Positions 1 to 14,537 are shown, counted from the stretch's first letter. The stretch: 64,000 nt of DNA from Spirochaetia bacterium (GCA_963675665.1 OY776510.1:2528001-2592000); one strand, 5' to 3'. Notes: generated from the letters alone by a model not told the origin. Made by a program: numbers and translations.

Positions 1-342
1 CATGTTCTTCAGAATAAATGTCTTGGAAGAATGACCGGTATTTCATCTCTTGAAGTCAAGGCCAAACTTGATGCCGGTGAAAAACCGTTTATCCTTGATG
101 TACGCGGCCCTGATGAATATGAAGAAATGAGGCTCGGCATCGGAGAAAAGCTTATTCCGCTGGGAGCAATCAGAAAACGTCTTGATGAACTTCCCAAAGA
201 TAAAACTGAAGAAATTATAGTTTACTGTAAAATATCGCTCCGTGGGTATGAAGCGGCATGCTGTTTAGCGGGAGTCGGTTATAATAACGTAAAAGTTCTC
301 GAAGGCGGTGTAATTGCCTGGCCATTTTCCAGAGAAAAATAA
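1..342 (+). CDS. C-terminal rhodanese domain, probably of a CoA-disulfide reductase/NADH oxidase-rhodanese fusion (5' truncated by the window)
   Basis: Frame is open from base 1 (HVLQNKCLGRMTGIS...). Rhodanese motifs ILDVR..EY, IVYCKISLRG and VLEGGVIAW. Confidence 0.8.
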   Translation, partial: HVLQNKCLGRMTGISSLEVKAKLDAGEKPFILDVRGPDEYEEMRLGIGEKLIPLGAIRKRLDELPKDKTEEIIVYCKISLRGYEAACCLAGVGYNNVKVLEGGVIAWPFSREK

Positions 343-361
343 AAACTATAATATTCTTTTG

Positions 362-394
362 AAACCGTCCCGAATAGCCGGGGCGGTTTTTTTT
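362..394 (+). terminator. Rho-independent terminator
   Basis: AAACCGTCCCG-aatagc-CGGGGCGGTTT stem followed by a T run, just after the stop codon. Confidence 0.8.
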
Positions 395-467
395 GAAAGT
401 TGTAATTTAAAAATACCTGTTATCTTAAAAAACTGCTTTTTTCGGATATTACCTGCGTAAAATGAAG

Positions 468-535
468 TTGACAATATTAGTTAAAACAAATATGTTTAAC
501 ACTGCCAAGTTAATACTTGTTAACTTGGCAGTGTT
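468..535 (+). promoter_or_regulatory. Sigma70-like promoter with an overlapping perfect 16-bp inverted repeat
   Basis: TTGACA (468-473), 17 nt, TATGTT (491-496). Inverted repeat AACACTGCCAAGTTAA / TTAACTTGGCAGTGTT at 498-535. Confidence 0.55.
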
Positions 536-572
536 CTTTTGTGAAAAAAAATTGAAAAATACAGGAGAAAAT

Positions 573-999
573 ATGAGCTTCTTGCCAATTCCTTTTCACA
601 GTCTGATTGATATTACAATGAAAATACTGGATACGCGTGATCCCTACACTTTTATACATTCCTGGAGAGTTGCGGGCATGAGTGAAAAGATGGGACGGAT
701 GGGGGTATCCCGAAGGATTGTGCGGCAGAGCTATACCTCTGGGGAGCAGAATTATTTCAGTTGCAGATTCTTTTGATGCAATGACAAGTTCAAGGACATA
801 TAGAAAAGCCCGACCATATCGTGATGCGTTTAAGGAAATAAAACGCTGCAGGGGGCAACAGTTCTGTCCTGATGTTGTTGACATGTTTATTAATAATCAG
901 AATGAAATTATTGAGGTGATAGAAGCAGCGAACCTTGAAATCGAACAGCACAGAACAGATTTTGTTATTAAGAATAAGGAGATTTCCTATGCCGAATAA
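573..999 (+). pseudogene. HD-GYP c-di-GMP phosphodiesterase, internally deleted and frameshifted
   Basis: AGGAG RBS and ATG at 573 give ...RDPYTFIHSWRVAGMSEK. A different frame then continues RWDGWGYPEGL..IPLGSRIISVADSFDAMTSSRTYR..GQQFCP. The HD and HHE core between the two halves is missing. Confidence 0.8.
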
Positions 1000-1057
1000 C
1001 AAAGCAGGATGCATTGACCGGTAAAAGTCCGTAATATAAACTATCTTAAGGAAAGAA

Positions 1058-1900
1058 ATGTCTGATAAAAAGAACGCATCGGAAGTTTATATAAAATCCC
1101 TGGAGAATGCAAACAAAATTACGGAGAATGCAATTCGGTCCGCCATAGGGGCGTTAGGGCTGTTTAACGGTTGCAATGTTCTCGATGTCCCGTGCGGTAT
1201 AGGTAATCATGCCCTGTGGATGGCTCAGGATACCCCGAACAGTAATATCATAGGAGTGGATTTTTTAGAGGAACATATCGATTATGCGCGGCGGTTAAAA
1301 ATTCAAATGGTCAATCCGGTTTCAGTAGTTTTTGAAAAGGGGGATATCAACAACCTCAATTTTAAGGATGATCTCCTTGATTTTATCTGGTGCTGTGATG
1401 GTCTGTGGCCCGGGCCGGTTGAATCAGGGTGTGTGGCTGAAACCCCTTTCGATATTCTTGAATCATTAAAACGGATAGTAAAGCCCGGCGGAACAATAGC
1501 TCTTCTGTTCTGGTCCTCACAGAAGCTTCTGCCGGGATACCCTCTGATCGAAGCCGCACTTAATGCCTGTCCGTCTTCACTTCTTCCCATGACTGAAAAT
1601 CAGCCGCCTGAACTGCATTTTATGCGAGCACCATCCTGGCTTGCAAAGGCAGGGTTTGTTAATATACGCAGCAGGACTTTCTGCGCGGACATTTGCGGTC
1701 CGCTTGATAATGAATATAAGGAAGCTCTTCACAAAATCTTTGATATGCTCTGGCGGGCAGCAGAAAGGGAGGCTGCTCCCCGGGTCAGGGCAGTATATAA
1801 ATTGCTTATTGATCCGCAGTCCGATGAATATATCCTGGCGAATCCTGATTATGCCGGTTTTATAACCTACACAATGTTCACCGGTAAGCGGCCCCTGTAG
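1058..1900 (+). CDS. Class I SAM-dependent methyltransferase
   Basis: Motif I VLDVPCGIG, motif II GVDF, GDINNL, and LKRIVKPGG. Confidence 0.85.
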   Translation: MSDKKNASEVYIKSLENANKITENAIRSAIGALGLFNGCNVLDVPCGIGNHALWMAQDTPNSNIIGVDFLEEHIDYARRLKIQMVNPVSVVFEKGDINNLNFKDDLLDFIWCCDGLWPGPVESGCVAETPFDILESLKRIVKPGGTIALLFWSSQKLLPGYPLIEAALNACPSSLLPMTENQPPELHFMRAPSWLAKAGFVNIRSRTFCADICGPLDNEYKEALHKIFDMLWRAAEREAAPRVRAVYKLLIDPQSDEYILANPDYAGFITYTMFTGKRPL

Positions 1901-2027
1901 ACGTACATATCCTTAAACATTTAAACGCATTGAAGTATTGCATTGACTCCTTCGAGGACCGGTTTTGCCGTTATAAAAATAAAAAATTATTGTAAGAATA
2001 AAGATTCCAATGTAACATAGCTTTGAT

Positions 2028-3782
2028 ATGCAGATGCGCCTGGCAATACCGGATTTAAAAATCAGATACCGAATTTATTTCATGACAGTTGTTCTGGCTG
2101 TTCTGGTTTTTTTTACTGTTATAAATTTGACATATTTTTTAAGTCTGTCCAAAGCTGTGATTTGTGCAGTCCTTGCTTTGGTTGTTGTATTTGAGATTCA
2201 ATATATTGTGCGTTTCAATAAGGTTTTTCATAATCATCATTCGGCTATTATGGGTTTTATACTATTATTAATATTGATACCTGTATTAGGCGGAGACAGC
2301 AGCAGGGGCAGAATGTGGATATTTATTCTGCCCCTTGTTATTTTTTATACACAGGATTTCAAAACAAGTCTTATTTTTCTTTCGCTATCTGTTTTTCTTG
2401 CTTTGATAACGCAGATATTATCAATATTCAATCTGATTACCTCCCAGGTTCCATACACACTTGAACAGGTGATTGTTTTTTTTCTTATTGTCCTTATTGC
2501 ATGTATTTATGAAAAGACTATCCGTAATGATGAAAAAATTATTAAAAATAATCTTTATACTGATCAACTGACAAATCTTCCAAACAGGAGAAAACTCATT
2601 TATGAGCTGCAGCATCAGATAAATTCGGAAGGCGTAATTCTGGCATTAATTAATATAGATGATTTTAAAGAGATTAATGATCTGTTTGGTGCTTCTACAG
2701 GAGATAAGGTTATAAAGCATTTAAGCAAGATAATTAAAGAAGGCAAGTTTGCAAACAAGGAGCCAAGGATCTACAGACTTCATTCCGATGAATTTGCTGT
2801 TGTTTTTAAATGTGACGAAAAAAGAAACTGTGAATTATTTATACGTAATCTGATAAATGATTTATCCGAGCCGTTTTTTATGGAAAATGATGAGATTTTA
2901 ATTACAGTTTCGATTGGTGTTTCGGACTGTACTCTTTTCCCGTTAGAGCAGGCTGATATTGCTCTGAAAAAAGCAAAAGAACGAAAAGAGCATATCGTCT
3001 TTTTTGACAAATCATTTAAAACTATTGAGAAATTCGATGAGAACAGGTTGATTCTTTTAAGGTTACGAAAAGCACTGGAAACGGATAATGTGATACCGTT
3101 TTTTCAGCCTGTATTTGATATAAAAAGTAACACAATAACAAGGTATGAATCTCTTGTGAGGCTTGTTGATTCGGGAAAGATCTATTCGCCATTATCATTT
3201 CTTGAAATTTCAAAACGCTCAAAACTCTATCATAATATTACCAGGGCAATGATTAATAAAACATTCGAAGCATTTAATGAGAGTAATTATTCTTTCTCAA
3301 TAAATATTAATTATGATGATATACTTAACAGGGAAACGGAAAGTTTGCTTATTGAAAAAATTAAAAACTTCAGTTCTCCGTCAAGAATAATGCTTGAATT
3401 GCTGGAAACAGAAAAAATTGAAGATTGCCACGAAGTCCGATCATTTATCAACCGGGTAAAAGGTTTCGGCTGTAAAATAGCTGTTGACGACTTCGGTTCA
3501 GGATATTCGAATTTTAATTATATAATTTCTCTTAATGTGGATTTTATAAAAATAGACTCATCTTTGATAAAATATATTGATAGTGATTTCAATTCACAGA
3601 TAATTACAAGAAGTATCGTAAGTTTTGCCAAAGAGATGGGTATAAAAACGATTGCAGAGTATGTGCATAACGAAAGTGTATTAAAAAAAATCCGGGAACT
3701 GGATATAGATTATGCTCAGGGATATTTTATCGGAAAACCGGCCTCAGAGCTGCAAAGGCTGCCGGCGTTTGCTGAAATTTAG
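2028..3782 (+). CDS. Membrane-bound GGDEF-EAL protein, likely a c-di-GMP phosphodiesterase
   Basis: Multi-TM N-terminus. GGDEF domain (DQLTNLPNRR, INIDDFKEIND) with a degenerate active site RLHSDEF. EAL domain with YESLVR, ELLETE, DDFGSGYS, IKID, AEYV and QGY. Confidence 0.9.
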   Translation: MQMRLAIPDLKIRYRIYFMTVVLAVLVFFTVINLTYFLSLSKAVICAVLALVVVFEIQYIVRFNKVFHNHHSAIMGFILLLILIPVLGGDSSRGRMWIFILPLVIFYTQDFKTSLIFLSLSVFLALITQILSIFNLITSQVPYTLEQVIVFFLIVLIACIYEKTIRNDEKIIKNNLYTDQLTNLPNRRKLIYELQHQINSEGVILALINIDDFKEINDLFGASTGDKVIKHLSKIIKEGKFANKEPRIYRLHSDEFAVVFKCDEKRNCELFIRNLINDLSEPFFMENDEILITVSIGVSDCTLFPLEQADIALKKAKERKEHIVFFDKSFKTIEKFDENRLILLRLRKALETDNVIPFFQPVFDIKSNTITRYESLVRLVDSGKIYSPLSFLEISKRSKLYHNITRAMINKTFEAFNESNYSFSININYDDILNRETESLLIEKIKNFSSPSRIMLELLETEKIEDCHEVRSFINRVKGFGCKIAVDDFGSGYSNFNYIISLNVDFIKIDSSLIKYIDSDFNSQIITRSIVSFAKEMGIKTIAEYVHNESVLKKIRELDIDYAQGYFIGKPASELQRLPAFAEI

Positions 3783-3810: not shown

Positions 3811-4548
3811 ATGGAAAAAGCAAAAGTTTTTTACAATGAATTAATAAACCGGTTTGAGAAAATAATTAATGAAAATGATCTTCTTGATGAGACAATTATG
3901 ATAACCGGAAAAGTCCTGACGCCGGAAGAGGCTTTGGGTAAACCCGATCGCAGGGACTTTCCCTTACTGTCCGGAAAGGAACGTCTTATGGAAGCGGATT
4001 TCAGAGGCAGCAAAGGACAGGCTTATACGGATATGCCGGGAAACTTTACCGGGGATCTTAAAAGTATTATTGAGTTTTATCCGGAAAATAATTTTCAGCG
4101 TGCTGTACTTGTTTCCAGTATAAATGCGGTATGCAGGTATCTTGGAATTGCCGATAAAACAATTCACTGCAGGGACAATGAGCCGGAATCATGCGCTGAT
4201 GAAATAACCGGGTTTATTAAAAAGGAATTCGGAGAAGTAAAAATAGCGCTTGTGGGTTGTCAGCCCAGCATGCTTGAAAAATTGTCGTCAGTATTTCAGG
4301 TGCGTAACCTTGATCTGGATGATGATAAAATAGGCACTGAAAAGTTCGGTGTAGAGATTGAACATGGAATAGAAAAACTTGATGAAGTTCTCGGCTGGTG
4401 CGACATTATTCTTGCCACCGGAAGTACAATTGTAAACAGTACGATTGTTAGGTATCTGGATCTGAAGCCCGTATTTTTTTACGGCACTACAATCAGCGGA
4501 GCAGCAGCCCTCATGGGTTACAAACGCCTTTGCTTTTGTGCGAGTTAA
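3811..4548 (+). CDS. DUF364-family Rossmann-like (putative heavy-metal chelation) protein
   Basis: Family-typical segments DFPLLSGKE, INAVCRYLG, TIHCRDNEPESC, DIILATGSTIVN and YGTT. Confidence 0.7.
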   Translation: MEKAKVFYNELINRFEKIINENDLLDETIMITGKVLTPEEALGKPDRRDFPLLSGKERLMEADFRGSKGQAYTDMPGNFTGDLKSIIEFYPENNFQRAVLVSSINAVCRYLGIADKTIHCRDNEPESCADEITGFIKKEFGEVKIALVGCQPSMLEKLSSVFQVRNLDLDDDKIGTEKFGVEIEHGIEKLDEVLGWCDIILATGSTIVNSTIVRYLDLKPVFFYGTTISGAAALMGYKRLCFCAS

Positions 4549-4578
4549 TCCGGAGTTAATCCGGGTTATAAAAATTAA

Positions 4579-4608
4579 TTGACATCTGCGAATATGATGT
4601 GATAAATT
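4579..4608 (+). promoter_or_regulatory. Sigma70 promoter of the riboswitch-led operon
   Basis: TTGACA (4579-4584), 18 nt, extended -10 TGaTAAATT (4600-4608), 12 nt before riboswitch P1. Confidence 0.65.
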
Positions 4609-4620
4609 ACAACCAATAGA

Positions 4621-4740
4621 TTCTCCGAACCGTTTTTCCTAAGGAATCTGTCTATGGAAATCCGGTCGCTGTTTCGGTCATAGCCCGAACAAAGGGAATT
4701 ACAGGAAACTGTAGTTCCTCCCGTATTTTGGAAAGGAGAA
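4621..4740 (+). ncRNA. Molybdenum cofactor (Moco/Tuco) riboswitch, P3-containing form
   Basis: P1 TTCTCC/GGAGAA. P2 carries the tetraloop receptor CCTAAG...TATGG. P3 GTTTCGG/CCGAAC. P4 GGAATTACAG-GAAA-CTGTAGTTCC. The 3' signature CCTCCCGTATTTTGGAAAGGAG closely resembles the E. coli moaA leader. Confidence 0.92.
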
Positions 4741-4859
4741 AGCACTCTACTGCTGTTTTTTTAAAACTGCGGTGTCCCTCCATACTTACGGTACTCATTC
4801 GGCTAATGCTGCTGAAACAGCACGGTCTCTCTGTTGAAATCTGAAAAAGAGGAGTAAGT

Positions 4860-6860
4860 GTGAAAAAGAGAAATTTTATCCTGTTTTTAATTATCTGTTC
4901 AGTACTGTTTTTTTCAAACGGAATTTATGCATCAGGAACACGAGAGAGTGCTGAAAATGCAGCTCAGACGGAAACCAGGATGGTTACTGATATGAGGGGG
5001 CGAAGTGTCGAAGTTCCCGTGACAATTAGCCGGGCCGCGAGCGTATTTCCCTATGTAACGTTTTTGACCCTGGCATTAGGCGGCGGTGATGTCCTTGTCG
5101 GTATTGATTCTGCGTCAGCGGGTAATGAGAACCTTATTCGGACGTACCCGGAAATGAAGGACATCCCTGCTATGGGAATGTTCTTCAATGTTAATCCGGA
5201 AAGTATTCTTGAAGCTGATCCTCAGGTGGTTTTTACCGTAAACTGGGACAAGGATCCCGATAAGACACAGGATCTTCTGAATGTTCCTGTGATATGCATC
5301 GATTTAAACCTTTACAGGGAAAGCATTGAATTCCTTTCCGGTATTTTGGGAAGCGGGGCTGAATCAAGAGGAAACGAGCTTGTATCCTGGTATGAAGATA
5401 AAAAAGATTTTATAGCCGAAAGTATAAATAAAGCAGACGTGAAGGAACCTGCAAAGGTTTATATTGTAGGCGGTAAAGGAATCCACTCCACCTTCGGAAA
5501 GGAATCCACCTGGCAATATGAAATAGAAGATGCAGGCGGAGTAAATGTTGCGGCTGATGTTGCCGGCGGCGGTGCGCAGGAAGTATCAGCCGAGCAGATT
5601 ATAATCTGGAAGCCGGATGTAATTATCCTTGATTCCGCGTGTCCTGATTCAGCGGAAGATCTTCTGAATAATGATACATTCCGGGACGTCCCTGCTGTAA
5701 AGACCAAAAGAATATACCGGGCCCCCGTCGGATTTCTTGATACTTTCGGGCGTCCGCATATGGAATCGGCATTAGCCCGTTTATGGCTTGCTGACAAGCT
5801 TTATCCTGATGAGATTAATATTGATATTGTTGATGAAGCAAAAAAGTTTTATTCAAAATTTTATGGCGCCAAACTGTCGGATTCTGAAATAGATGCCATT
5901 TTAAATCCTGTAAAACAGTCTGATGAGCCTTCCAATATTACAGTTACGGATTCTATTGGAAATAAAGTCCTTATTCCTGCCGGAGATAAAAAAGTGGCAT
6001 CGCTCAGATCCGGAATCACCGAAATAATATGTGCATTAGGCGCTGTGGACTCAATAATTGCCGTGGATGAAATGACCAAAGATGGTTATATGTACGGAGA
6101 GTTCATTTCGTTGGCATATCCTCAACTGATGGAGCAGACAGCACCCTATTCGGGGCGAGATGTTAATATTGAAGAACTGTTAAGCATAGAGCCGGATCTG
6201 GTTCTTCACGGCGGTTTCGGACGTATAAGACAGGCTGATTCAATCAAAAATCAGGCGCCTGAGCTTCCGGTTGTGATAGCGCACTTTGAGACCATGGATG
6301 CCTATATGGATGATATCAGAATTGTCGGTAAATGCGTCAATGCTGAAGATCGTGCCGAAGTTTTAATAACCTATCTGCAGCAGAAGCTCGATATGATAAA
6401 GGAATTAACAAAAAAAATTCCTGAAGACAGGAAGAAGAGTGTTTTTTATGGCGGTCATGATGTCTATCATGCTTACGGCGGAAATACATTTGAACATTTT
6501 CAGATTGTAAATGCCGGCGGGGTAAACCCGGCCGAATCCCTCACAGGATGGATGCCTGAAGTATCTCCGGAGCAGCTTCTTAACTGGAATCCCGATGTGA
6601 TTATATTGCTTAACGGGGCTGATGTTGAGGCCGTTATGAACGACGACAGGATAGAAAGTATATCCGCAATCAGAAACGGAAATGTATATGCTCTTCCGCA
6701 GGCCGGATGGGATTTTTCAACGCCGCGCGCGCTTTTTTGCATTGAATGGATATTCTCAAAGCTTTATCCGGAAGAATATTCATCTTTTGATATTAACAAA
6801 CAGGCCGACGACTTTTTTATGCAGGTTTTTAATGTTTCTTATGAAGGACCCGAACTTTAA
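4860..6860 (+). CDS. ABC transporter substrate-binding protein with two tandem FecB/BtuF-type (class III) domains
   Basis: GAGGAG RBS and GTG start. Signal peptide ending IYA-SGTRE. Two repeats beginning VTDMRGRSVEVP and VTDSIGNKVLIP, each with N.E.ll..PD, AGGVN and VS.EQ...W.PDVI. Confidence 0.9.
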   Translation: MKKRNFILFLIICSVLFFSNGIYASGTRESAENAAQTETRMVTDMRGRSVEVPVTISRAASVFPYVTFLTLALGGGDVLVGIDSASAGNENLIRTYPEMKDIPAMGMFFNVNPESILEADPQVVFTVNWDKDPDKTQDLLNVPVICIDLNLYRESIEFLSGILGSGAESRGNELVSWYEDKKDFIAESINKADVKEPAKVYIVGGKGIHSTFGKESTWQYEIEDAGGVNVAADVAGGGAQEVSAEQIIIWKPDVIILDSACPDSAEDLLNNDTFRDVPAVKTKRIYRAPVGFLDTFGRPHMESALARLWLADKLYPDEINIDIVDEAKKFYSKFYGAKLSDSEIDAILNPVKQSDEPSNITVTDSIGNKVLIPAGDKKVASLRSGITEIICALGAVDSIIAVDEMTKDGYMYGEFISLAYPQLMEQTAPYSGRDVNIEELLSIEPDLVLHGGFGRIRQADSIKNQAPELPVVIAHFETMDAYMDDIRIVGKCVNAEDRAEVLITYLQQKLDMIKELTKKIPEDRKKSVFYGGHDVYHAYGGNTFEHFQIVNAGGVNPAESLTGWMPEVSPEQLLNWNPDVIILLNGADVEAVMNDDRIESISAIRNGNVYALPQAGWDFSTPRALFCIEWIFSKLYPEEYSSFDINKQADDFFMQVFNVSYEGPEL

Positions 6861-6865
6861 AACTG

Positions 6866-7894
6866 ATGCATAATGAGCAGAAATCTGATCGGCTGTTCAG
6901 TCTTGCAGCATTCTTTTTTGGTTTGCTGTTTGTAATTCTTTTTATTGTATCTCTGTTTTCAGGCAGATATTCCATTTCGCCCGGGTTGATGTGCCGTGTG
7001 TTGCTTTCTAAGATAATACCTCTCGATATAACATGGTCACGGACTGTGGAGACTGTAGTCTTCAATATCAGGCTTCCGAGAACCGTACTTGCCTGTCTTA
7101 TAGGAGGAAGCCTCGCTGTCTGCGGGGCTTCTTTTCAGGGCATGTTCCAGAACCCGCTGGTTAGCCCTGACATTCTCGGCGTAACATCAGGCGCAGGCTT
7201 CGGCGCAGCTTTGGCAATCCTTCTGTGGAACAAGGTCGCGCTTATACAGGCCTCGGCCTTCACGTTCGGAATACTTGCCGTTGTTGTTGCTTACCTGATC
7301 AGCCGCGTCTTTAAAACAACGCCCACACTGATGCTTGTGCTTTCCGGTATTATTGTAGGCTCTATTTTTTCAGCTCTTTTATCATTGATTAAATATGTTG
7401 CAGATCCCAACCAGAAACTGCCGGCTATAGTTTTCTGGCTGATGGGAAGTCTTGCGGGTGTTTCCAGAAAAGAACTTGTAACCGTTGCGATACCAATCCT
7501 GATTGGAACAGCCGGACTGTTCCTTGTAAGGTGGCGGATAAACATACTGTCGATGGGAGACGAGGAAGCACATTCGATGGGGATCAGAACCGGCACGCTC
7601 AAGCTGTTCATCATTATCTGCGCTACATTAACAACGGCATCCTCCGTAAGCGCCTGCGGCATAATAGGCTGGGTAGGCCTGGTTGTGCCGCATATCTGCC
7701 GGATGATTATCGGTTCGGACCATAAGCGACTTATACCGCTTTCTTTTCTGGGCGGAGGCTGTTTTCTGCTCGGCGTTGATACCATTGCAAGAACCGCCAT
7801 TTCAGCTGAAATCCCGCTGGGAATCCTGACCGCACTTATCGGGGCCCCTTTCTTTGCATTCCTGCTCAGAAAAACAGGAGGCAAACCGGGATGA
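6866..7894 (+). CDS. FecCD/BtuC-family ABC permease
   Basis: IRLPR, FQNPLVSPDILGVTSGA, FWLMGS, GDEEAHSMG, GWVGLVVPH and EIPLGILTALIGAPFF. Confidence 0.95.
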   Translation: MHNEQKSDRLFSLAAFFFGLLFVILFIVSLFSGRYSISPGLMCRVLLSKIIPLDITWSRTVETVVFNIRLPRTVLACLIGGSLAVCGASFQGMFQNPLVSPDILGVTSGAGFGAALAILLWNKVALIQASAFTFGILAVVVAYLISRVFKTTPTLMLVLSGIIVGSIFSALLSLIKYVADPNQKLPAIVFWLMGSLAGVSRKELVTVAIPILIGTAGLFLVRWRINILSMGDEEAHSMGIRTGTLKLFIIICATLTTASSVSACGIIGWVGLVVPHICRMIIGSDHKRLIPLSFLGGGCFLLGVDTIARTAISAEIPLGILTALIGAPFFAFLLRKTGGKPG

Positions 7895-8736
7895 ATGAAA
7901 CAGCCGTTGAATTATTTGAAGCATCATTTTCTTACGGGACCGAACCTGTTTTTTCGAATATCTCCGGAAAGATTAATCGCGGAGAGATCGTGTGTCTTCT
8001 GGGCGCAAACGGCTGTGGAAAGACAACCCTGATGAAATGTATGAACGGGCTTCTGCAGTTCGAAAGCGGAAAGGCTTTTATTCTGGGGAAAGATTTATTT
8101 TCAATGAGCGAGAGAGAACTTGCGATGAAAACAGCTTTTGTTTTCCAGGGTTATTCTCAGGTTTTTTCATATTCCGTTACCGACATTGTTCTTACCGGAA
8201 GGGGGCCCCATCTCGGCTTTTTCTCTTTTCCAGGACAAAAAGACAAACAAAAAGTTTTTTCAATTATGAAGGAAATGCATATAAGCCATCTGGCTTCACG
8301 ATATTTTCCCACCCTGAGCGGAGGAGAGCAGCAGCTTACAATGATCGCCCGGGCCCTGGCGCAGGAACCTTATGTGCTTTTTCTTGATGAGCCGGCTACA
8401 GCTCTGGATTTCGGAAATCAGCAGTACCTGTTAAGGACTGTAAAGAACCTGGCCAGGGTATACGGAATAACGATAGTAATGTCGACCCATTACCCGGACC
8501 ATGCATTGGCCGTTGCAGACAGTATCTGGGCAATAAAGGACGGCCGGATTATCAGTTCGGGACCTCCGCTTGAAGTCCTCACTGAGGAAAATATTTATAA
8601 ACTTTATAATGTGCCGGCCAGAGTGATTGAAGTGAGAGAAGAAGGAATTAATTCTCATACTGTAGTCCCCCTGGATAACAAAGCCGGCGATGAAGTAAAT
8701 TTTATTCTTGCGAACAAAGGTAAAGATAATGAGTGA
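7891..8736 (+). CDS. ABC ATP-binding protein (FepC/BtuD type)
   Basis: Walker A GANGCGKT, signature LSGGEQQ, Walker B FLDEP, STH switch. ATGA overlap with the permease. Confidence 0.95.
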   Translation: MNETAVELFEASFSYGTEPVFSNISGKINRGEIVCLLGANGCGKTTLMKCMNGLLQFESGKAFILGKDLFSMSERELAMKTAFVFQGYSQVFSYSVTDIVLTGRGPHLGFFSFPGQKDKQKVFSIMKEMHISHLASRYFPTLSGGEQQLTMIARALAQEPYVLFLDEPATALDFGNQQYLLRTVKNLARVYGITIVMSTHYPDHALAVADSIWAIKDGRIISSGPPLEVLTEENIYKLYNVPARVIEVREEGINSHTVVPLDNKAGDEVNFILANKGKDNE

Positions 8737-10960
8737 TGTAAGGTGTAATTATTGTGAGAAGAGATGTATTTTAACTGATAAGGATTTCGGATATTGCAGG
8801 ATGTACAAGATGGAAGAAGGAAAGGTCGTCGAACGATTCCCGTTTCGTTTTTCAAGCATAGGAGATTCTTATGTAGATGGCATCCCTTTCTATCACGTAT
8901 TACCCGGAAGCAGGACCCTTGTTGTCGGCAGTTCCGGATGCAATATTGATTGCGCGTATTGCTCCAATTCCTATGTCGCGAGGGCCGATGTTGAAAAGAC
9001 ATTGCGCCTTAAATGTTCTGCTGAAGAAATAATCCGTATGGCTAAAAACGCTGAATGCAAATCAATAACCTTTCCGATTAATGAACCTGTTGTTGCTTTG
9101 CCTACTGTTCTCGGGATTGCCGAAGAAGCTTCGAAGTCAGGGCTCCCGACAGGGATTCTTACAAACGGACTTATGACTGAATCTTCTGCGGAAGCCCTGG
9201 CGCGGTCCGTAGACTTTATCAATGTAAGTATAAAGGCCGTTAACAAGGACAGTATATCGGCCCTGCTCGGCTGGTATGATCTGGAAGTTCTTGCCCGTAA
9301 TATTTCGTTGTTTAACAGGAACGCGCATGTTGAGGTCAGTACCCCGATAGTGCAGGGGATAAATGATTCGGATATACCGGCAATAGCCGGCCTTATCTCA
9401 AGTATTGACCGAAGTATTCCCTGGCATGTATTTCGTCTGCTTCCGGAGTATCGTATGGCCGAAATGGAACGTCCCAACATCCGCAAGGTAGCCAATGCGA
9501 TTGAAAATGAAAAGGAAAATCTTGATTTTATCTATTTCAGCAATTTCCTCGGATCAGTATGGGTCGATACCCTTTGCCCCGAATGCGGGAAAAAGGTTAT
9601 AGAAAGGATTAACTACGGCGGCTGCAATGCCAAATGCGTTAAGATTGAACTGGATTCGGACAGGTGTCCTGTTTGCGGCAGGAAGATCCCTGTATTTAAC
9701 AACATGTCAATTTCGGAAGAATATGATTCAGCTTTCAATATGCAGAAATCTTCCCCGGTAATGTATGACGATACAGATAAAGATATTGCTGTTATTGATG
9801 TTGTCGACTGGCAGGCTGATGTGGAGATGAGGACCGGAAATATTGTCGATATTGAAGATATTGTTAACGGGAACGGCGCGGACAGGGCTAAAAGGATTAT
9901 ATCCGAAGTTAAATCTCATCTTAAAGAAAATCAGTATCCCGGAGATTTAAACGGTTCTGCCTGTGAATGGATAACTGACAACGCACTGGCTATAAATAGA
10001 ATATATAAGCCCGAATTCATGTTTCTTAATTATTGCGATATATTTTTTAATAAAGTTTTTTCTTCAGGCGACAGTTTTACCGAAAAAAAGATTCGTAACA
10101 AAGTTTTTAATGAAGTGAACCGGTTTATTGAAAACACCGACTTTGAACCGGTAATAGCAGGGTTGGGCAATCTTATTGATATTTCCGGAGAAATAAGTAC
10201 GACCGGAACAGACGCCCATATAGAAGCTTTTGGAATGTACTGTCAGTATGCGGGACTGTTTTCTCCGTCAAACGAGGCTCTGAAACGGATAGAACCCATA
10301 CCTGGTATACGGAAAATAGTATCAAGAGAGATGTTGCGGAATTCCGGCGATGTCGCTCCGGATTTTCTTAAAAGAAGTCCTGATTATATCCTGTGTGCAA
10401 AAGAAGGATACTATTTCAGGGGACACGGAACCGCCGCCAGACCTTTTTATAAACTTCCTTCACAGGATGCAAGTATTCCTGTTTCGGGGATTAAAAGCGG
10501 CAGAGTAAAGAATATTACTGATATAGCTTCGTATATTCTTGATTCACTGGGGAAAAAGAAGACAGCGCTGATTTTTATTGAGGGCATCGGCAGGGAAGAG
10601 TTTCCGTACGATTCAATTGATATCGGATCCTCGCAGGATTGGTTCTATTATCCGCATAATAATGAAATGTACCTGTCAATACTCACGGGAGAACCCTTTA
10701 CCGCCAGGCCTTATCCTCCGGCATATCAGGCATATAAATATGACGGTTATGATTCGCCTTTTCCATATTCGGCATACTATGAGTATATTGAACCGGGTTC
10801 AATAGGAAGAAGATTCAAGGGCCGCAGCGTGTCCGTTGGCGGGAGAAGCGTCCTGACGCATGTTTCAGCCGGAACGGACATTACAATAGAATGCTTTGCC
10901 CGGGCGCTTTACAATCATGGAACAATTGCCGTAATGAACACGGAAAAGCTTGGTAATTAA
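8729..10960 (+). CDS. Radical SAM protein (AmmeMemoRadiSam/PflA-like N-terminal part) fused to an uncharacterised domain of about 400 aa
   Basis: CNIDCAYC cluster motif, N-terminal CxxCxxxC...C, PFYHVLPGS, INEP, and a CPECG...CPVCG zinc ribbon closing the SAM part. The start overlaps the ATPase stop. Confidence 0.85.
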   Translation: MSDVRCNYCEKRCILTDKDFGYCRMYKMEEGKVVERFPFRFSSIGDSYVDGIPFYHVLPGSRTLVVGSSGCNIDCAYCSNSYVARADVEKTLRLKCSAEEIIRMAKNAECKSITFPINEPVVALPTVLGIAEEASKSGLPTGILTNGLMTESSAEALARSVDFINVSIKAVNKDSISALLGWYDLEVLARNISLFNRNAHVEVSTPIVQGINDSDIPAIAGLISSIDRSIPWHVFRLLPEYRMAEMERPNIRKVANAIENEKENLDFIYFSNFLGSVWVDTLCPECGKKVIERINYGGCNAKCVKIELDSDRCPVCGRKIPVFNNMSISEEYDSAFNMQKSSPVMYDDTDKDIAVIDVVDWQADVEMRTGNIVDIEDIVNGNGADRAKRIISEVKSHLKENQYPGDLNGSACEWITDNALAINRIYKPEFMFLNYCDIFFNKVFSSGDSFTEKKIRNKVFNEVNRFIENTDFEPVIAGLGNLIDISGEISTTGTDAHIEAFGMYCQYAGLFSPSNEALKRIEPIPGIRKIVSREMLRNSGDVAPDFLKRSPDYILCAKEGYYFRGHGTAARPFYKLPSQDASIPVSGIKSGRVKNITDIASYILDSLGKKKTALIFIEGIGREEFPYDSIDIGSSQDWFYYPHNNEMYLSILTGEPFTARPYPPAYQAYKYDGYDSPFPYSAYYEYIEPGSIGRRFKGRSVSVGGRSVLTHVSAGTDITIECFARALYNHGTIAVMNTEKLGN

Positions 10961-10989: not shown

Positions 10990-12096
10990 TTACCAGAGCG
11001 GGGTAAGCCTGCGGGCAAAGACATTGCGGGCCGGTTTCATATCAAGATCGCTGAAAAACAGGCCCGAATCCTTATGGTATGACGCGTCCGACTCGACCAG
11101 CTTGAAGTAATAGGCTTCTGTAACAGGAAGAGCTTCTATGGCGTCTATATAATATTCCATCCGGTCGGCCTGGTAGTCCGGAGAAGTAAGCTCAAATTCC
11201 GAATTCGGGCCCCCGAATTCCGAAACCAGCACAGATTTTTCATCCGGCAGAACGGAAAGATATTCAGGCCAGTTTTCAGGATCATCATACAAATGGATGT
11301 CTATAATATCATATCCGGCGTTCTGAAAAACATACTCTACATTCTGCTTTATCCCGTTGCTGTCGTAATCTTCTTTAATCTTATCGATTCGACTGTTGAG
11401 ATATTCTACAGTAATGCCGTTATCGAGGGTGATACCGGAAAAATCAGGGTAGGCGCCCTTTGCGGCAAAGTATTCAACAATCGGATAGGTTCTGGTAAGT
11501 CCTCCAAGAACAACTTCAGTATTCGGTGATAATGTCTGAACGGCATTATAAAGTATATTATTATAGGCTACGAATCTTTCTATGGAACTCTGATCCATGT
11601 AAACCGTTCCGTCCTGTGTGCCTGATTCCCACTCGTTTCCAAACTGGATTTTATTGATATTGTTGTACCGGGATAATAATGCTTCGATAAAGGTTTGAAG
11701 CGCCTCTTCGTTCAGAAGACAGGCGCCGTCGCTTCCGGGCGTGAGGGTTGCCCAGTCCGGACCGATGCTTGATATGGTCAGAAAAACCGATATATTGTTT
11801 TCTTCGGCCGCATTCATGCGGACATCCATGGGGTCCCAGTAAAAGTTTCCCTGCTCAGGTTCCCTGTTTCTCCAGTCTACGGCTATTCGTATTCTGTCGA
11901 TTGCCAGTTTCTTTATCTCATCAACGGTAAAGTTAATCTGTTCAAGGCTGGAAAAAGGCGGGAACGACATTCCCGCTATTATACCTGTTGCTCCGTAAAC
12001 GGAATAATTGCCTTCCAGTATTAATTCCGATTCACAGCAGGAATAAAGATGTAAAGTAATTATAAGTAAAAATATTACCCGAAACAGCCTGTTCAT
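10990..12096 (-). CDS. Clan GH-A glycoside hydrolase, probable lipoprotein
   Basis: Lipobox-like LYSC, W...EPEQG.F.W, acid/base QFGNEW, DIHLY, nucleophile VSEFG. Confidence 0.7.
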   Translation of the reverse strand: MNRLFRVIFLLIITLHLYSCCESELILEGNYSVYGATGIIAGMSFPPFSSLEQINFTVDEIKKLAIDRIRIAVDWRNREPEQGNFYWDPMDVRMNAAEENNISVFLTISSIGPDWATLTPGSDGACLLNEEALQTFIEALLSRYNNINKIQFGNEWESGTQDGTVYMDQSSIERFVAYNNILYNAVQTLSPNTEVVLGGLTRTYPIVEYFAAKGAYPDFSGITLDNGITVEYLNSRIDKIKEDYDSNGIKQNVEYVFQNAGYDIIDIHLYDDPENWPEYLSVLPDEKSVLVSEFGGPNSEFELTSPDYQADRMEYYIDAIEALPVTEAYYFKLVESDASYHKDSGLFFSDLDMKPARNVFARRLTPLW

Positions 12097-12290
12097 AATA
12101 TATAAAAGTACTATGTTGCTGATCAGATTTCAATCCTGGTCGGGAAATCTTTGTTTGTTGCTTTTCAGTAAGTATTCAATCTTAATCATCCGGCTGTTGA
12201 CTTTTTCAGTCAATTCAAAATTAATGGTTAAAAGCATAACACAGTACCTAATTGCTTCATTTCGTAAGTTTTAAAGGACTGGGGAGACAG

Positions 12291-13769
12291 ATGGCGAAAA
12301 CATTAATGATTCAGGGCACTTCCTCAAATGTCGGAAAGAGTTTTCTGACCGCGGCGCTCTGCCGGATTTTTTATCGGAAAGGTATAAATGTTGTCCCTTT
12401 TAAAGCGCAGAATATGGCGCTGAACTCGTTTGTTACCCCGGAAGGCGATGAAATAGGCCGCGCCCAGGCAGTACAGGCCCAGGCTGCGGGTCTTGCTCCT
12501 CATGTGGATATGAACCCTGTGCTTCTGAAGCCTGAAGCAGATGCAAAAAGCCAGGTTGTGCTTATGGGAAAGCCGTGGAAAAGCCTTCCTGCCGGAGAAT
12601 ACTATAAAGAGCGGTTTGAATTATGGAAGGCTGTTACACAATCGCTTGAGCGGCTTGATAAAAAGTACGACCTGATAATTATTGAAGGAGCGGGAAGCCC
12701 TGCGGAAATAAATCTTAAAAGATTCGAAATTGTGAATATGCGGGTTGCCCGGCATTTGCAGTCTCCGGTCCTTCTTGCCGGAGATATTGATCGCGGCGGT
12801 ATTTTTGCCCAGCTGTACGGTACCCTGGAGCTTCTTGAACCTGAAGAACGGGAACTTATAAAAGGTTTTATAATTAACAAATTCCGGGGTGATGTTAAAT
12901 TGCTTGAACCGGGAATTGATATGCTGACGGAATTGACAGGCGGTGTCCCGACTTTGGGAGTAGTTCCATATATCCGCGATATTTTTCTCGCCCAGGAAGA
13001 TTCGGTTTCCCTCGATGAACAGACGGAATATGAATCGGAAAACATCGCTGCGAATGAGGCTCTGGACATTGTCGTAGTGCGTTTGCCTCACATCTCAAAT
13101 TATGATGATTTTGATCCGCTGCAGCATGAAGACGGAGTAAATATCAGGTTTGTCGATTCTGTAAAAAAAATCGGCCGGCCCGATGCGATAATTATTCCGG
13201 GCAGTAAAACTACGATTGCAGATCTGAACTGGCTTAAAAACAACGGTCTGGCTGATATCATTACAGGATTTTCTAAAGCGGGAATCCCTGTCTGCGGAAT
13301 ATGCGGCGGCTACCAGATGCTTGGAAAATCCATAAACGATTTAAAAGGCATTGAGGGGAGGCCGGGCAGGTTTGACGGAATAGGGTTGCTGCCTGTTGAA
13401 ACGGTATTTGATCACGGCAAAGAAACAGTTGCGGGTACAGCAGAAGTCTGCTCAGACGGAAGTGAAGTCCGCGGGTATGAAATTCATATGGGCAGGACAA
13501 GCCTTTACCCTGATGCTGTGCCTCTGCTGAATAAAAAGGACGGCAGTTTTGACGGCTGTGTATTGGGAAGTGTGTGGGGAACATATTTTCACGGTATTTT
13601 TGATAATGACGAATTCAGAAGAACTTGGCTTGGAAAGATCGGATGGAATGGGTCAAACAATGTCGCTTCTTTCTTCAGCAGGCGCGAAGAAGAGCTGGAA
13701 TGTCTTGCAGACCAGTTTGAACAGGCCCTCGATATGGAGGCAATAGCCGGAATTATCGACGGGAAATAG
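12291..13769 (+). CDS. cobQ: Cobyric acid synthase
   Basis: MIQGTSSNVGKS, PFKAQNMALNS, IGRAQ, EGAGSPAEINL, DIDRGG, INKFRGD, GICGGYQMLG, GYEIHMG, GTYFHG. GGGGAG RBS. Confidence 0.96.
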   Translation: MAKTLMIQGTSSNVGKSFLTAALCRIFYRKGINVVPFKAQNMALNSFVTPEGDEIGRAQAVQAQAAGLAPHVDMNPVLLKPEADAKSQVVLMGKPWKSLPAGEYYKERFELWKAVTQSLERLDKKYDLIIIEGAGSPAEINLKRFEIVNMRVARHLQSPVLLAGDIDRGGIFAQLYGTLELLEPEERELIKGFIINKFRGDVKLLEPGIDMLTELTGGVPTLGVVPYIRDIFLAQEDSVSLDEQTEYESENIAANEALDIVVVRLPHISNYDDFDPLQHEDGVNIRFVDSVKKIGRPDAIIIPGSKTTIADLNWLKNNGLADIITGFSKAGIPVCGICGGYQMLGKSINDLKGIEGRPGRFDGIGLLPVETVFDHGKETVAGTAEVCSDGSEVRGYEIHMGRTSLYPDAVPLLNKKDGSFDGCVLGSVWGTYFHGIFDNDEFRRTWLGKIGWNGSNNVASFFSRREEELECLADQFEQALDMEAIAGIIDGK

Positions 13770-13772
13770 TCT

Positions 13773-14537
13773 CTACGCGATAATAACCTTTATCCCGGCA
13801 GCTTCAAAATCCGCTTTCTGCCGGTCAGTTATGCCGCCGTCTGTGATCAGGCAATCTATCCTGTCCATCGCACGAAGGGCTGCAAACGCAGGCCGGTTTA
13901 TCTTTGTTGAATCGACAAGCAGAAACACCTCGTCGGCCGAATCAATCATGGCCTGCTTAACCGGCAGGTCGCTGAAGCCGGGATAAGTCAGCCCGGTATC
14001 AAGTGATACCCCCGCCGCCGCGAGAAACAGCTGGTGAACATGCATATTCTGAAAAAAGACGGCCGCTTTATCGCCGGTCAGCGAAAGCGTCGGCGCCTTA
14101 AACTCGCCCCCCGTCATATGTACTTCCATCCCGGGGTTTGCCCCGAGAATCAACGCGATGTTGAGGCTGTTGGTAATAACCCTGAGTTGTTTGACTCCGG
14201 CAAGGCTGCGGGCCAGTTCGGTTACGGTGGTCCCTGAATCGAGTATGATGGAAGTATTCTCCTTTACAAAGCCGGCGGCCCTTTCGCCTATCTGTTTTTT
14301 GAGATCCATGTTTTCGGTATGTTCCAGGGACAGAGATTTAACCCTGTCGGATATGTTTTTAAGAAATGCGCCCCCGTGGTCTCTTGCAATCTCGCCGGCG
14401 GATTCAATTTTTACAAGATCCTGCCGTATCGTGGGTTCGGAAACATTAAAAAGATTGCTCAGATAGGTTACCCTTGCGCTTCCGTTTTCTCTTATAAGCT
14501 CAATAATCTTTTCGCGGCGCTGTTCAGCCAGCATCAA
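13773..14537 (-). CDS. DeoR/GlpR-family transcriptional regulator
   Basis: HTH VSEPTIRQDL, RDHGGA, ILDSGTT, ITNSL and DSTK. Confidence 0.93.
   Translation of the reverse strand: MMLAEQRREKIIELIRENGSARVTYLSNLFNVSEPTIRQDLVKIESAGEIARDHGGAFLKNISDRVKSLSLEHTENMDLKKQIGERAAGFVKENTSIILDSGTTVTELARSLAGVKQLRVITNSLNIALILGANPGMEVHMTGGEFKAPTLSLTGDKAAVFFQNMHVHQLFLAAAGVSLDTGLTYPGFSDLPVKQAMIDSADEVFLLVDSTKINRPAFAALRAMDRIDCLITDGGITDRQKADFEAAGIKVIIA

Follow-up and report, generated by a model that had tools for sequence, protein, structure and literature searches.

A Moco riboswitch-led operon encoding a MolBC-A-like importer and a radical-SAM fusion enzyme in a Spirochaetia bacterium: a candidate system for molybdenum or tungsten acquisition

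Organization of the Locus

The window analyzed here is a stretch of 64,000 nucleotides from the genome of a Spirochaetia bacterium (GCA_963675665.1, OY776510.1:2528001-2592000). Within it, a Moco riboswitch stands on the same strand as, and 105 nt 5' of, a set of four genes encoding a binding protein, a permease, an ATPase and a radical-SAM fusion protein (Table 1). The first two of these genes are 5 nt apart and the next two junctions are overlaps of 4 and 8 nt, in keeping with the tight coupling described in the original prediction, and because the next gene is convergent the operon consists of four genes. Of the sigma70 promoter claimed at the same time, the site itself is present and is kept in the related locus L035, the nearest relative, but the motif alone does not rise above chance, a scan having returned 14 sites against 13.5 expected from shuffled sequence. 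The DUF364 gene lies just 5' of this promoter, outside riboswitch control. Its C-terminal end is kept at the same place in L035, and DUF364 is a recurrent neighbor of the system, with DUF364/DUF4213 and FmdE at the head of the cluster in L034.

Table 1. Features of the riboswitch-led operon and its flanks (window coordinates).
Feature	Position	Strand	Basis or remark
DUF364 (PF04016) gene	3811..4548	+	Pfam, E 3.5e-8
Sigma-70-like promoter (putative): TTGACA, 18-nt spacer, TG-extended TAAATT	4579..4608	+	10/12 matches; kept in L035
Moco riboswitch aptamer, P3-containing type	4611..4754	+	RF01055, 76.5 bits
Leader / expression platform (predicted)	4755..4859	+	Folds, motif coordinates
Binding protein, 666 aa, two Peripla_BP_2 domains	4860..6860	+	Pfam
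Binding-protein module A, residues 1-347, signal-peptide-like N-terminus	4860..5900	+	Peripla_BP_2, E 1.4e-21
Binding-protein module B, residues 348-666	5901..6860	+	Peripla_BP_2, E 1.7e-31
FecCD-family permease, MolB-like	6866..7894	+	PF01032, E 5.6e-90
ABC ATPase	7891..8736	+	PF00005, E 3.7e-29
Radical-SAM fusion, 743 aa	8729 (ATG; alternative TTG 8708)..10960	+	Pfam
Radical-SAM half of fusion	8729..9727	+	PF04055, E 6.6e-14; PF13353
C-terminal domain, unnamed family, divergent alkaline-phosphatase/NPP-like fold (predicted)	9782..10960	+	Structure model
Convergent next gene	10990..12096	-	Ends operon

The Riboswitch and Its Leader

The original prediction named a Moco riboswitch and proposed a covariance-model search as the check on it. 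This search of the window matched the Moco RNA motif RF01055 over the whole model (1-135), with an E-value of 9.7e-17 and a score to be compared with a gathering threshold of 36 bits. The quoted motifs lie where they had been placed, with CCTAAGG at 4638, CTATGG at 4652, a GGAAAC loop at 4704 and CCTCCCGTATTTTGGAAAGGAG at 4717-4738. The P3 stem, GCUGUUUCGG...CCGAACA, which had also been recognized, is visible in the alignments between P2 and P4. No other Rfam element, the cobalamin riboswitch RF00174 included, was found in the window by the Rfam search. The host genome holds 11 Moco riboswitches in 5.15 Mb, so that chance placement before a given operon is improbable, and beside this low expectation the riboswitch-before-operon arrangement was found again in other phyla.

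Downstream of the aptamer, nucleotides 4781-4789 are complementary to 4854-4862, which contain the spacer and the GTG start, and nucleotides 4812-4821 are complementary to the 5' strand of P3 (4668-4677). A Shine-Dalgarno sequence, AGAGGAG, is located at 4848-4854, the fold of the whole leader has a z of -3.9, and each of the two helices shows one compensatory change in L035. Read from these two sequences, host and L035, the leader would act as the expression platform: when Moco is plentiful it would bind the P3-type aptamer and the leader would mask the start region, and when Moco is scarce all four genes would be made.

An Importer Near MolBC-A

The two binding modules differ, as had been proposed, being 27% identical to one another and having orthologues of their own at 46-74% identity. 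Module A shares 74% identity with the lone binding protein of L035 and 51 and 46% with the second module of the L040 and L038 proteins, respectively. For module B, the identity to the first Peripla_BP_2 module is 63% in the L039 binding protein, 61% in that of L040 and 59% in that of L038. The modules of L038 and L040 are fused in the reverse order, B-A, and this points to independent fusions. It argues that two-module binding proteins may have arisen separately in two phyla and, given the opposite orders, that both modules are needed.

The best solved relative of the permease is 2nq2, the HI1471 protein (MolB) of H. influenzae, at 248.6 bits, followed by HmuU (173.1 bits), FhuB (151.9 bits) and BtuC (134.5 bits). 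For the binding modules the top solved relatives are 4ovk and 4hn9, and MolA (3psa) ranks third for module A (E 5.8e-25) and fourth for module B (E 2.3e-20); the entries ranking above it, 4ovk, 4hn9 and 2etv, name no ligand. With MolB first for the permease and MolA among the top four for both modules, the analogy to MolABC drawn in the original prediction stands, and by sequence likeness the importer belongs near MolBC-A. The NCBIfam models that permease and ATPase match best are the BtuC, FhuB, heme and corrinoid ones, all far under cut-off (BtuC 234.9 against 461). BtuF reached 44.4 against 234, and FhuB, FecC and FecD likewise stayed under their cut-offs, so that the BtuFCD, siderophore and heme equivalog levels were not reached.

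Like MolBC-A (HI1470/HI1471/HI1472) of H. influenzae, the system combines a class III binding protein with a FecCD permease and an ATPase. MolBC-A binds and imports molybdate and also binds tungstate according to parts of PMC4031551 and PMC4245157, in which the regulator of the mol operon is described as unknown. Unlike that system, the binding protein here joins two different modules, the operon is under a Moco riboswitch, the radical-SAM fusion enzyme is co-translated, the hosts belong to strict-anaerobe lineages and the substrate is putative. In the Chloroflexota relatives, the binding proteins have N-terminal modules that match PF00174 (Oxidored_molyb). These matches cover only profile positions 63-161 of 169 and fall in repeats of about 100 aa, in which no conserved cysteine was seen when the alignment was read by eye.

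The Fusion Enzyme

The radical-SAM half has an N-terminal cysteine cluster (C6, C9, C13 and C23) and a CX3CX2C motif at 8939-8962 (CNIDCAYC, residues 71-78), and it includes a linker rich in Cys, in which CPEC is found at 9575 and CPVC at 9665. Pfam gives only Radical_SAM and Fer4_12 for the fusion, with no SPASM domain. The best NCBIfam row is TIGR04337 (AmmeMemoRadiSam) with 136.4 bits; the cut-off is 220, and the split-form radical-SAM protein of L037, with 164 bits, is also under it. The half is PflA/AmmeMemoRadiSam-like as judged by these profiles, and the search by sequence found no solved relative. It differs from the AmmeMemoRadiSam enzyme in the score below cut-off and in its partner, here a domain of predicted alkaline-phosphatase (AP) fold.

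The GTP 3',8-cyclase MoaA was tried as an identity and rejected (TIGR02666 31.5 bits against 284), and the protein is a non-MoaA radical-SAM enzyme, as had been said of it; the true MoaA of the genome, at 370 bits, is encoded elsewhere.

The C-terminal part, of about 400 residues, matches no Pfam family at E up to 5. PF01663 matched none of 31 members of the family, a whole-genome PF01663 search (E up to 1) missed the domain, and a profile search against PDB sequences returned nothing. The family has 97 representatives in 1.84 billion proteins, which are usually stand-alone and about 380 aa long, a few being fusions. The AlphaFold2 model has a pLDDT of 92, and its best fold match is PhnA (Z 9.3, 223 of 410 residues aligned, rmsd 4.0), followed by ENPP6 (8.2), ENPP7 (7.9), ENPP4 (7.8), Xac NPP (7.5) and PafA (7.1); the rows after PafA are helicases with Z of 6 or below. 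The alignment takes in roughly the first two thirds of the model and no more, the best Foldseek match has an E-value of 1.3e-3 with a TM of 0.30, and the nearest named Atlas clusters are PF01663 with a score of 0.92. As far as the model allows, the match to the AP fold is a moderate one.

Across the family alignment P71, W81, Y308, G321, R373, E388 and G398 are invariant and D73, D219, E285, H378, D384 and C389 are at least 90% conserved; these have no obvious fit to what we take to be the NPP catalytic set. A radical-SAM protein with extra Cys clusters tied to an AP-fold protein is reminiscent of the anaerobic sulfatase-maturing enzyme (anSME), a radical-SAM enzyme that acts on a sulfatase of the AP superfamily. 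Unlike that pair, the fusion lacks SPASM and has a PflA/AmmeMemoRadiSam-like radical-SAM part, and no C/S-x-P-x-R motif was seen when the alignment was read by eye, the consensus near the conserved arginine being SAAVGSRS.

Related Loci in Three Phyla

In every related locus with upstream sequence, an orthologous radical-SAM gene lies directly 5' of the gene for the C-terminal domain. Of the 20 loci scanned, 11 have a same-strand RF01055 match 5' of the genes (L035, L036, L037, L040, L044, L045, L048, L049, L051, L052 and L053), and these come from Spirochaetales (Spirochaetota), Chloroflexota and Bacillota. The nine loci without a riboswitch comprise five under 3.3 kb, L038, which is cut at a contig end, L039 and L042, whose genomes have no RF01055 match anywhere, and L054. 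Neither L033 nor L034 has one at the locus or elsewhere in its genome. The co-occurrence of riboswitch and gene set that the original prediction put forward for checking is thus seen in three phyla, and by this linkage the enzyme family, radical SAM plus AP-like fold, belongs to the Moco riboswitch regulon there.

In L037, L048 and L049 the riboswitch is directly before the radical-SAM gene, so that the enzyme is itself a direct riboswitch target. The pair of radical-SAM and AP-fold genes sits with a ModA-like binding protein in L048 and L049 and is followed in both by a MatE efflux gene; in L048 it adjoins a gene for a MOT1-type (MFS_MOT1) molybdate transporter. Methyltransferase genes are present in L034 and L042. 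In most longer loci the pair adjoins genes of an importer, and none of the loci examined showed it next to moa, moe or mob. For the chelated or pterin-bound cargo suggested at first, nothing points that way, and the pair also keeps ModA-like and MOT1-type company.

The arrangement had also been treated as unlisted, which it is not. The main text of Regulski et al. (2008), in the part considered here, names moa, mod, tup and Mo/W enzyme genes, and the supplement has entries for Moco RNAs ahead of FecCD/FepC/TroA_e, COG2014, BioB and radical-SAM genes in D. hafniense, M. thermoacetica and S. wolfei, given as gene lists only and uninterpreted.

The Host Regulon and a Proposed Division Between Mo and W

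Peripla_BP_2/FecCD/ATPase operons follow five of the 11 Moco riboswitches of the host genome. One of these operons begins with a WtpA-like gene (106 bits, under cut-off). L015, an operon of this kind other than the one described here, contains a second radical-SAM gene, which is BioB/HmdB-like. The remaining six riboswitches stand ahead of one ModA-like and one TupA-like ABC set, AOR, a SUOX-like gene, an aldehyde dehydrogenase gene and purine genes. A paralogue of the enzyme, 32% identical, is encoded at 3.88 Mb of the genome with its own importer and a P3-less riboswitch upstream. The genome also encodes MoaA, MoaC, MoaE and two MoeA genes, and cofactor auxotrophy is therefore not the reason for the system; neither a riboswitch nor a copy of the pair is found at the moaA/moaC and moeA loci.

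Among the elements aligned, P3 is present only in this one, in L035 and in those of the host ModA-like ABC (modABC) and L010 operons. It is absent from the host TupA-like, AOR and WtpA-like operons and from the enzyme paralogue, as well as from all 11 aligned elements of Chloroflexota and Bacillota loci. Like the Moco RNA regulons of Regulski et al. (2008), in which P3-containing and P3-lacking forms are reported to sort with Mo and W genes, respectively, the genome has a full-length match with P3 and both forms side by side. The distribution fits their Moco/Tuco rule, in which Moco stands for the subtype with P3 and Tuco for that lacking it, and within this genome it is consistent with the earlier reading of P3 as a sign of Mo.

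A Candidate Route for Mo or W Supply

The link to Mo/W has good support and the operon probably serves Mo/W acquisition, and the fuller reading preferred here, a molybdenum-acquisition operon under Moco repression with processing after import, is given a probability of about 45%. The first three genes would form a MolBC-A-type (type II) ABC importer with an exported binding protein of two distinct MolA-like modules, each kept on its own in other phyla, and the fourth would provide a cytoplasmic two-part enzyme that acts on the imported Mo species before cofactor synthesis; the paralogue at 3.88 Mb probably does likewise for tungsten. For this enzyme role, the closest parallel may be the cargo-processing enzyme of anaerobic heme or siderophore uptake operons. 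In the heme uptake operons of anaerobes, a type II importer is accompanied by ChuW/HutW, a radical-SAM enzyme that frees iron from imported heme, as described in part of PMC10035031. The radical-SAM families are unrelated and the regulator here senses Moco, not iron, so that the analogy is one of operon logic only. We infer that the radical-SAM protein may process the imported cargo. MolBC-A of H. influenzae works without such an enzyme, and processing may therefore be unnecessary; the oxyanion-type parts of L048 and L049 fit a role that follows uptake of the plain oxyanion as well as they fit processing.

A plain molybdate importer, or tungstate importer for the paralogue, whose enzyme works in cofactor assembly or metal handling and not on the cargo, is possible but somewhat unlikely. 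The enzyme could, for example, hold a tetrahedral oxyanion, add a sulfur ligand or mature a Mo/W enzyme. Tungstate, molybdate and vanadate mimic phosphate and bind in the active sites of AP-fold enzymes, and MolB and MolA, the closest characterized relatives, the ModA-like and MFS_MOT1 neighbors, the pair's own riboswitch in L037, L048 and L049 and the second radical-SAM gene of L015 would all suit this explanation. It sits less well with the position of the pair, next to importer genes in most longer loci and, in those examined, never with moa, moe or mob, and with host moaA/moaC and moeA loci that have neither riboswitch nor pair.

Salvage from neighbors of Moco, MPT, a dinucleotide form or a precursor, with the NPP-like domain trimming a nucleotide or phosphate, would be modeled on the B12 riboswitches that control BtuFCD and is quite improbable. 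Importers are commonly under riboswitches for the very cofactor that they carry (part of PMC3766115), large cargo such as B12 and heme is carried by type II importers (parts of PMC4031551 / PMC4245157), and the nearest fold relatives are nucleotide pyrophosphatases/phosphodiesterases. The PF00174 matches in Chloroflexota would also agree, but they are partial and show no conserved cysteine. Against salvage stand the Moa and MoeA genes of the host, a permease nearest to the small-substrate MolB, the occurrence of the pair with ModA-like and MOT1-like parts and the absence of an evident role for the radical-SAM step.

A metallophore system, in which the pair makes an exported Mo/W-binding small molecule and the importer takes up the metal complex, is highly improbable. 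Metallophore synthesis and uptake are usually co-regulated by the sensor of the metal, metal chelates are the typical cargo of a type II importer that has a class III binding protein, and the MatE and methyltransferase genes noted above would find a place. However, an exporter gene occurs in only 2 of 15 longer annotated loci and, so far as annotated, is missing from all five operons of the host genome, a biosynthetic pathway would be expected to have more than two enzymes, and the literature search found no description of such a molecule in anaerobes. Finally, an ordinary operon for uptake of an iron chelate, heme or B12 with an irrelevant riboswitch-like element, as a pipeline would annotate it from the best NCBIfam rows and from cobQ at 12252 (1.3 kb downstream of the operon), is scarcely credible and already disfavored by the sub-cut-off scores, by the Rfam search, by the convergent gene between cobQ and the operon and by the Moco riboswitch linkage recurring in 11 other loci.

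Sulfide removes the free oxyanions of Mo and W, and how anaerobes obtain the two metals in such places is a standing question. According to part of a 2024 paper, molybdate is so far the sole known bioavailable Mo source, and a methanogen grows on tetrathiomolybdate by an unknown route (PMC11484787). The locus offers candidates in an importer family resembling MolBC-A that Moco/Tuco riboswitches control directly, a binding protein of two modules and an unnamed family of radical SAM plus AP-like-fold enzymes, and the system hints at an unstudied step in the Mo or W supply of anaerobes. In a joint reading that we regard as unlikely, importer and pair would let strict anaerobes use the thiomolybdates and thiotungstates of sulfidic habitats. 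The thio-anion would bind to the enlarged MolA-like modules, and the AP-fold domain, as a thiometalate hydrolase, would act on a tetrahedral center; the fused radical-SAM domain might mature or assist the active site of that hydrolase, by analogy with the maturation of sulfatases by anSME. Through riboswitches with and without P3, one cell would possess distinct versions of this machinery for Mo and for W. Routine annotation of such operons as iron or B12 uptake would be corrected, and the two paralogues are natural material for studying how the two riboswitch forms part Mo from W.

Organization of the Operon and Its Leader

A riboswitch-controlled candidate Mo/W importer with an unstudied accessory enzyme is a real finding, and more than an ordinary one. 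The Rfam scan of the window returned an RF01055 match that spans the full model (76.5 bits against a gathering threshold of 36, E 9.7e-17), and only one further match, a tRNA. The riboswitch motifs quoted in the original prediction lie where it had placed them and the P3 stem is present; its central observation, a riboswitch leading a four-gene operon, is confirmed by this match and by the tight coupling of the genes: the first two lie 5 nt apart, the second and third overlap by 4 nt, and the third and fourth by 8 nt. The gene after the operon is convergent. A DUF364 gene, whose family we take to be the same as COG2014, lies directly ahead of the promoter both here and in the nearest relative locus (L035, Spirochaetales).

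The promoter-like site TTGACA-18-TG-TAAATT has its 3′ end 3 nt ahead of the RF01055 match and is conserved in L035; the promoter scan yielded 14 sites where 13.5 were expected, so that overall it is not above chance. An intrinsic terminator behind the aptamer was rejected, because the U-run, which is not conserved in L035, has no more than a 4-bp stem ahead of it. Two helices can be formed in the leader, one of them involving the start codon, and each has one compensatory change in L035. From just these two sequences, we infer that Moco binding may lead to translational masking.

Coordinates of the operon, its flanking genes and related features in the host and other genomes
Feature	Location	Strand	Remarks
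GGDEF-EAL protein	window 2028-3782		upstream; not in operon
DUF364 gene	window 3811-4548
Moco riboswitch (RF01055)	window 4611-4754	+
U-run	window 4755-4762
Possible leader pairing 1	window 4781-4789 with 4854-4862		latter includes GTG start
Possible leader pairing 2	window 4812-4821 with 5′ strand of P3
Gene 1, binding protein			666 aa; two Peripla_BP_2 domains
Gene 2, FecCD permease	window 6866-7894
Gene 3, ABC ATPase
Gene 4, radical-SAM protein	window 8729-10960		743 aa from ATG at 8729
Cobyric acid synthase CobQ	window 12252-13769		635 bits; downstream past convergent GH5-like gene; not in operon
moaA/moaC and moeA loci, host	G000:C1:100142-101573, 4948796-4950489		no Moco riboswitch despite 11 in genome
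Purine genes, host (L013)	G000:C1:3452594-3462593		genes at 289-1761, 1761-3200, 4370-6004
Aldehyde dehydrogenase, host (L017)	G000:C1:2451672-2461671, 8468-9877	-	NAD type, PF00171
BioB/HmdB/PylB-like gene, host (L015)	G000:C1:551939-561938, 7614-8537	-	86 bits; 307 aa
WtpA-like gene, host (L012)	G000:C1:2928862-2938861, 316-1626		436 aa; TIGR03730, 106 bits, under cut-off
PF00174-matching protein, host	L018:6915-8345	-	476 aa; between ABC genes under riboswitch
PF00174-type region, Chloroflexota	L040:7012-7953		noted in addition to the N-terminal regions
DUF364/DUF4213, FmdE and methyltransferase	L034:2668-4067 (genome G319)		head a riboswitch-free cluster
Second riboswitch-led copy, Syntrophomonadaceae MAG	L053:12191-12308		5 kb downstream of first copy; FecCD 13712-14677, radical SAM from 15591

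Relationship of the Importer to MolBC-A

Compared with all solved structures, the permease is closest to HI1471 (MolB) of H. influenzae (248.6 bits), far ahead of HmuU (173), FhuB (152) and BtuC (134). HI_1472 (MolA) ranks in the top four of solved relatives for both halves of the binding protein, module A (N-terminal; E 5.8e-25) and module B (C-terminal; E 2.3e-20), and the remaining top relatives are structural-genomics proteins with no named ligand. MolBC-A is described as a type II importer whose binding protein has molybdate and tungstate as ligands, and its loss as reducing molybdate uptake at high external molybdate (PMC4031551, PMC4245157).

The two modules share 27% identity with each other and have separate orthologues. 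Module A shares 74% identity with the sole binding protein of L035; in the Chloroflexota proteins of L040 and L038 its counterpart is the second module (51% and 46%). Module B corresponds to the first Peripla_BP_2 module in L038, L039 and L040, at 59-63% identity. The order is thus A-B in the window versus B-A in Chloroflexota, which argues for independent fusions and for a joint need for both modules. The permease is 64-67% identical to those of L039, L040 and L042; together with the identities of module B, across a spirochaete-like genome and Chloroflexota, this suggests that the operon moved from one phylum to another fairly recently.

The Chloroflexota binding proteins (L036, L038, L039, L040, L042, L044, L045) are lipoproteins with an LAGC-type lipobox, and their N-terminal parts carry one to three repeats of ~100 aa matching PF00174 (Oxidored_molyb) over profile positions 63-161 only. 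Such matches are a weak sign of pterin binding: they cover part of the profile and recur as repeats, and on reading the alignment no cysteine was seen to be conserved. The same partial match occurs in a host protein (L018).

The Radical-SAM Fusion Protein

Residues 1-330 of the fourth gene product form a radical-SAM domain with the motif CNIDCAYC, four clustered cysteines at the N-terminus and a linker containing six. Among NCBIfam models TIGR04337 is closest, yet under its cut-off, and the domain is clearly not MoaA. Residues 350-743 have no Pfam or NCBIfam match, a credible Pfam match was found in none of 31 aligned members of the family, and its profile reached at best E 0.15 against PDB sequences. 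When 1.84 billion representatives were searched in full with HMMER, only 97 relatives of this C-terminal domain emerged, mostly stand-alone proteins of ~380 aa and a few fused as in the window; a word-based search found only the protein itself and one 77% relative, and was too insensitive to pick up a 32% paralogue.

AlphaFold2 with the family alignment modeled the C-terminal domain with pLDDT 92 and pTM 0.92. The best structural match of the model is phosphonoacetate hydrolase (Z 9.3; 223 residues, rmsd 4.0), followed by ENPP6, ENPP7, ENPP4, a bacterial NPP and PafA (Z 8.2-7.1), with unrelated helicases at Z ≤6. Foldseek agrees weakly (E 1.3e-3, TM 0.30), and in the Atlas a homologue (P0005) has PF01663 as its nearest named clusters. 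The predicted domain is read as a divergent alkaline-phosphatase-superfamily (AP) fold.

Distribution in Other Genomes

When one genome per species was searched, an alignment of four C-terminal domain sequences picked out 23 loci. One is from a Spirochaetales MAG (77% identity), many are from Chloroflexota/Anaerolineae, and Bacillota are represented by Alkaliphilus, Syntrophomonas wolfei subsp. methylbutyratica, other Syntrophomonadaceae, Syntrophaceticus and a Bacilli MAG. The Rfam scan took in 20 of them, L055-L057 being fragments of the match only. A Moco riboswitch lies upstream on the same strand in 11 of the 20, in two of these in tandem or twice. Among the nine scanned loci with no riboswitch, five span less than 3.3 kb, in L038 the contig ends inside the first gene, and the genomes of L039 and L042 have no RF01055 match anywhere; the absence in L054, the ninth, is left without such an explanation. 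Within the phylum of the host, the domain occurs in 3 of 401 genomes searched, and the two of these besides the host have the same gene set with no riboswitch at the locus or elsewhere.

The riboswitch is usually followed, in turn, by binding protein, FecCD, ATPase, radical-SAM protein (~335 aa) and AP-fold protein (~380 aa). In L037, L048 and L049, the riboswitch stands directly ahead of the radical-SAM gene, so that the pair itself is a target. In L037, in-frame read-through joining the two genes was rejected: a plain TAA stop is followed by a Shine-Dalgarno sequence and ATG. The 11 elements aligned from loci of Chloroflexota and Bacillota all lack P3, and the system therefore looks tungsten-linked there.

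The Moco Regulon of the Host

The host genome has 11 RF01055 matches. Five lead Peripla_BP_2/FecCD/ATPase operons: that of the window, one beginning with a full-length paralogue of the radical-SAM fusion (32% identity, E 8e-126), one containing a BioB/HmdB-like radical-SAM gene (L015), one with a WtpA-like gene first (L012) and one with a Big_5 gene first. The others each precede a ModA-like ABC set (SBP_bac_11, permease, TOBE ATPase) followed by Fur and ZnuA genes, a TupA-like ABC set, a ferredoxin-AOR pair, a SUOX-like gene within an ABC set, an aldehyde dehydrogenase, and purB-like, guaB and guaA genes. P3 is present only in the window element and in those ahead of the ModA-like and Big_5 operons, and it is absent ahead of the TupA-like, AOR and WtpA-like operons and the paralogue; this sorting into Mo and W is as described by Regulski et al. 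(2008).

MoaA (370 bits), MoaC (184 bits), two MoeA genes and a weak MoaE (31.7 bits) are encoded in the host, which rules out cofactor auxotrophy as the reason for the importer, and all these genes are without a riboswitch. This argues that the cell makes its own cofactor, and that in this organism the Moco riboswitch would mainly govern acquisition and use rather than synthesis.

The P3-less riboswitch of L013, followed by genes for an adenylosuccinate-lyase-like protein, IMP dehydrogenase and GMP synthase, may tie the supply of GTP to the demand for cofactor. The aldehyde dehydrogenase of L017 needs neither Mo nor W and may take the place of the tungsten enzyme AOR when cofactor runs short. 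In L012, the WtpA-like gene heads a P3-less riboswitch operon, giving two binding-protein classes in one operon. The radical-SAM gene of L015 lies between binding-protein and permease genes of a riboswitch-led MolBC-like operon; it was rejected as a relative of the fusion, with which it has no similarity.

Probable Function

Acquisition of Mo or W is the best reading of the operon, with a probability of roughly three in four, because the Moco/Tuco riboswitch linkage is found in three phyla and the importer resembles MolB and MolA. After import, the enzyme would process a Mo/W species not ready for insertion. Such processing is favored since the enzyme is closely associated with importers and, in the loci examined, no moa or moe gene was seen next to the radical-SAM/AP-fold pair; acquisition and processing taken together are proposed tentatively, at somewhat short of even chances. 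The main rival is uptake of a plain oxyanion, in which case the enzyme would serve in the handling of cofactor or metal. It is supported by the loci L048 and L049, where MatE and a ModA-like binding protein come after the pair, and by a divergent MFS_MOT1 molybdate-transporter gene upstream of the pair in L048; against the association with importers, it is judged unlikely. Pterin salvage is a good deal weaker, and the chelated or pterin-bound cargo originally proposed found no evidence. A metallophore pathway is slightly less probable still. Uptake of iron or B12 is hardly credible, and all scores with the NCBIfam BtuC, FhuB, heme and corrinoid models are far under their cut-offs.

Earlier Records of the Gene Set

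Among open-access papers and preprints, none interpreting the riboswitch/importer/radical-SAM gene set was found; the RegPrecise survey, in the passages covered, has no Moco importer category (PMC3766115), and the SAO organometallic system (Haft preprint, in part) was dropped, as its gene set differs. The supplement of Regulski et al. (2008) includes rows in which Moco RNA precedes FepD-FepC-COG2014-TroA_e and MoeA-NifH-nitrogenase-like-MoeA-FecCD-FepC-TroA_e-BioB in D. hafniense, the BioB gene closing the latter operon, which is similar to that of L015, COG2014-FecCD-FepC in M. thermoacetica, and TroA_e ... Radical SAM-COG1051 in S. wolfei. The bare association has thus been on record since 2008, without comment. 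What is new is the placing of the importer with MolBC-A, the two conserved and independently fused types of binding module, the recognition of the radical-SAM/AP-fold pair as a Moco-regulon family, and a pair of paralogues within one genome, one behind a P3-containing and one behind a P3-less riboswitch.
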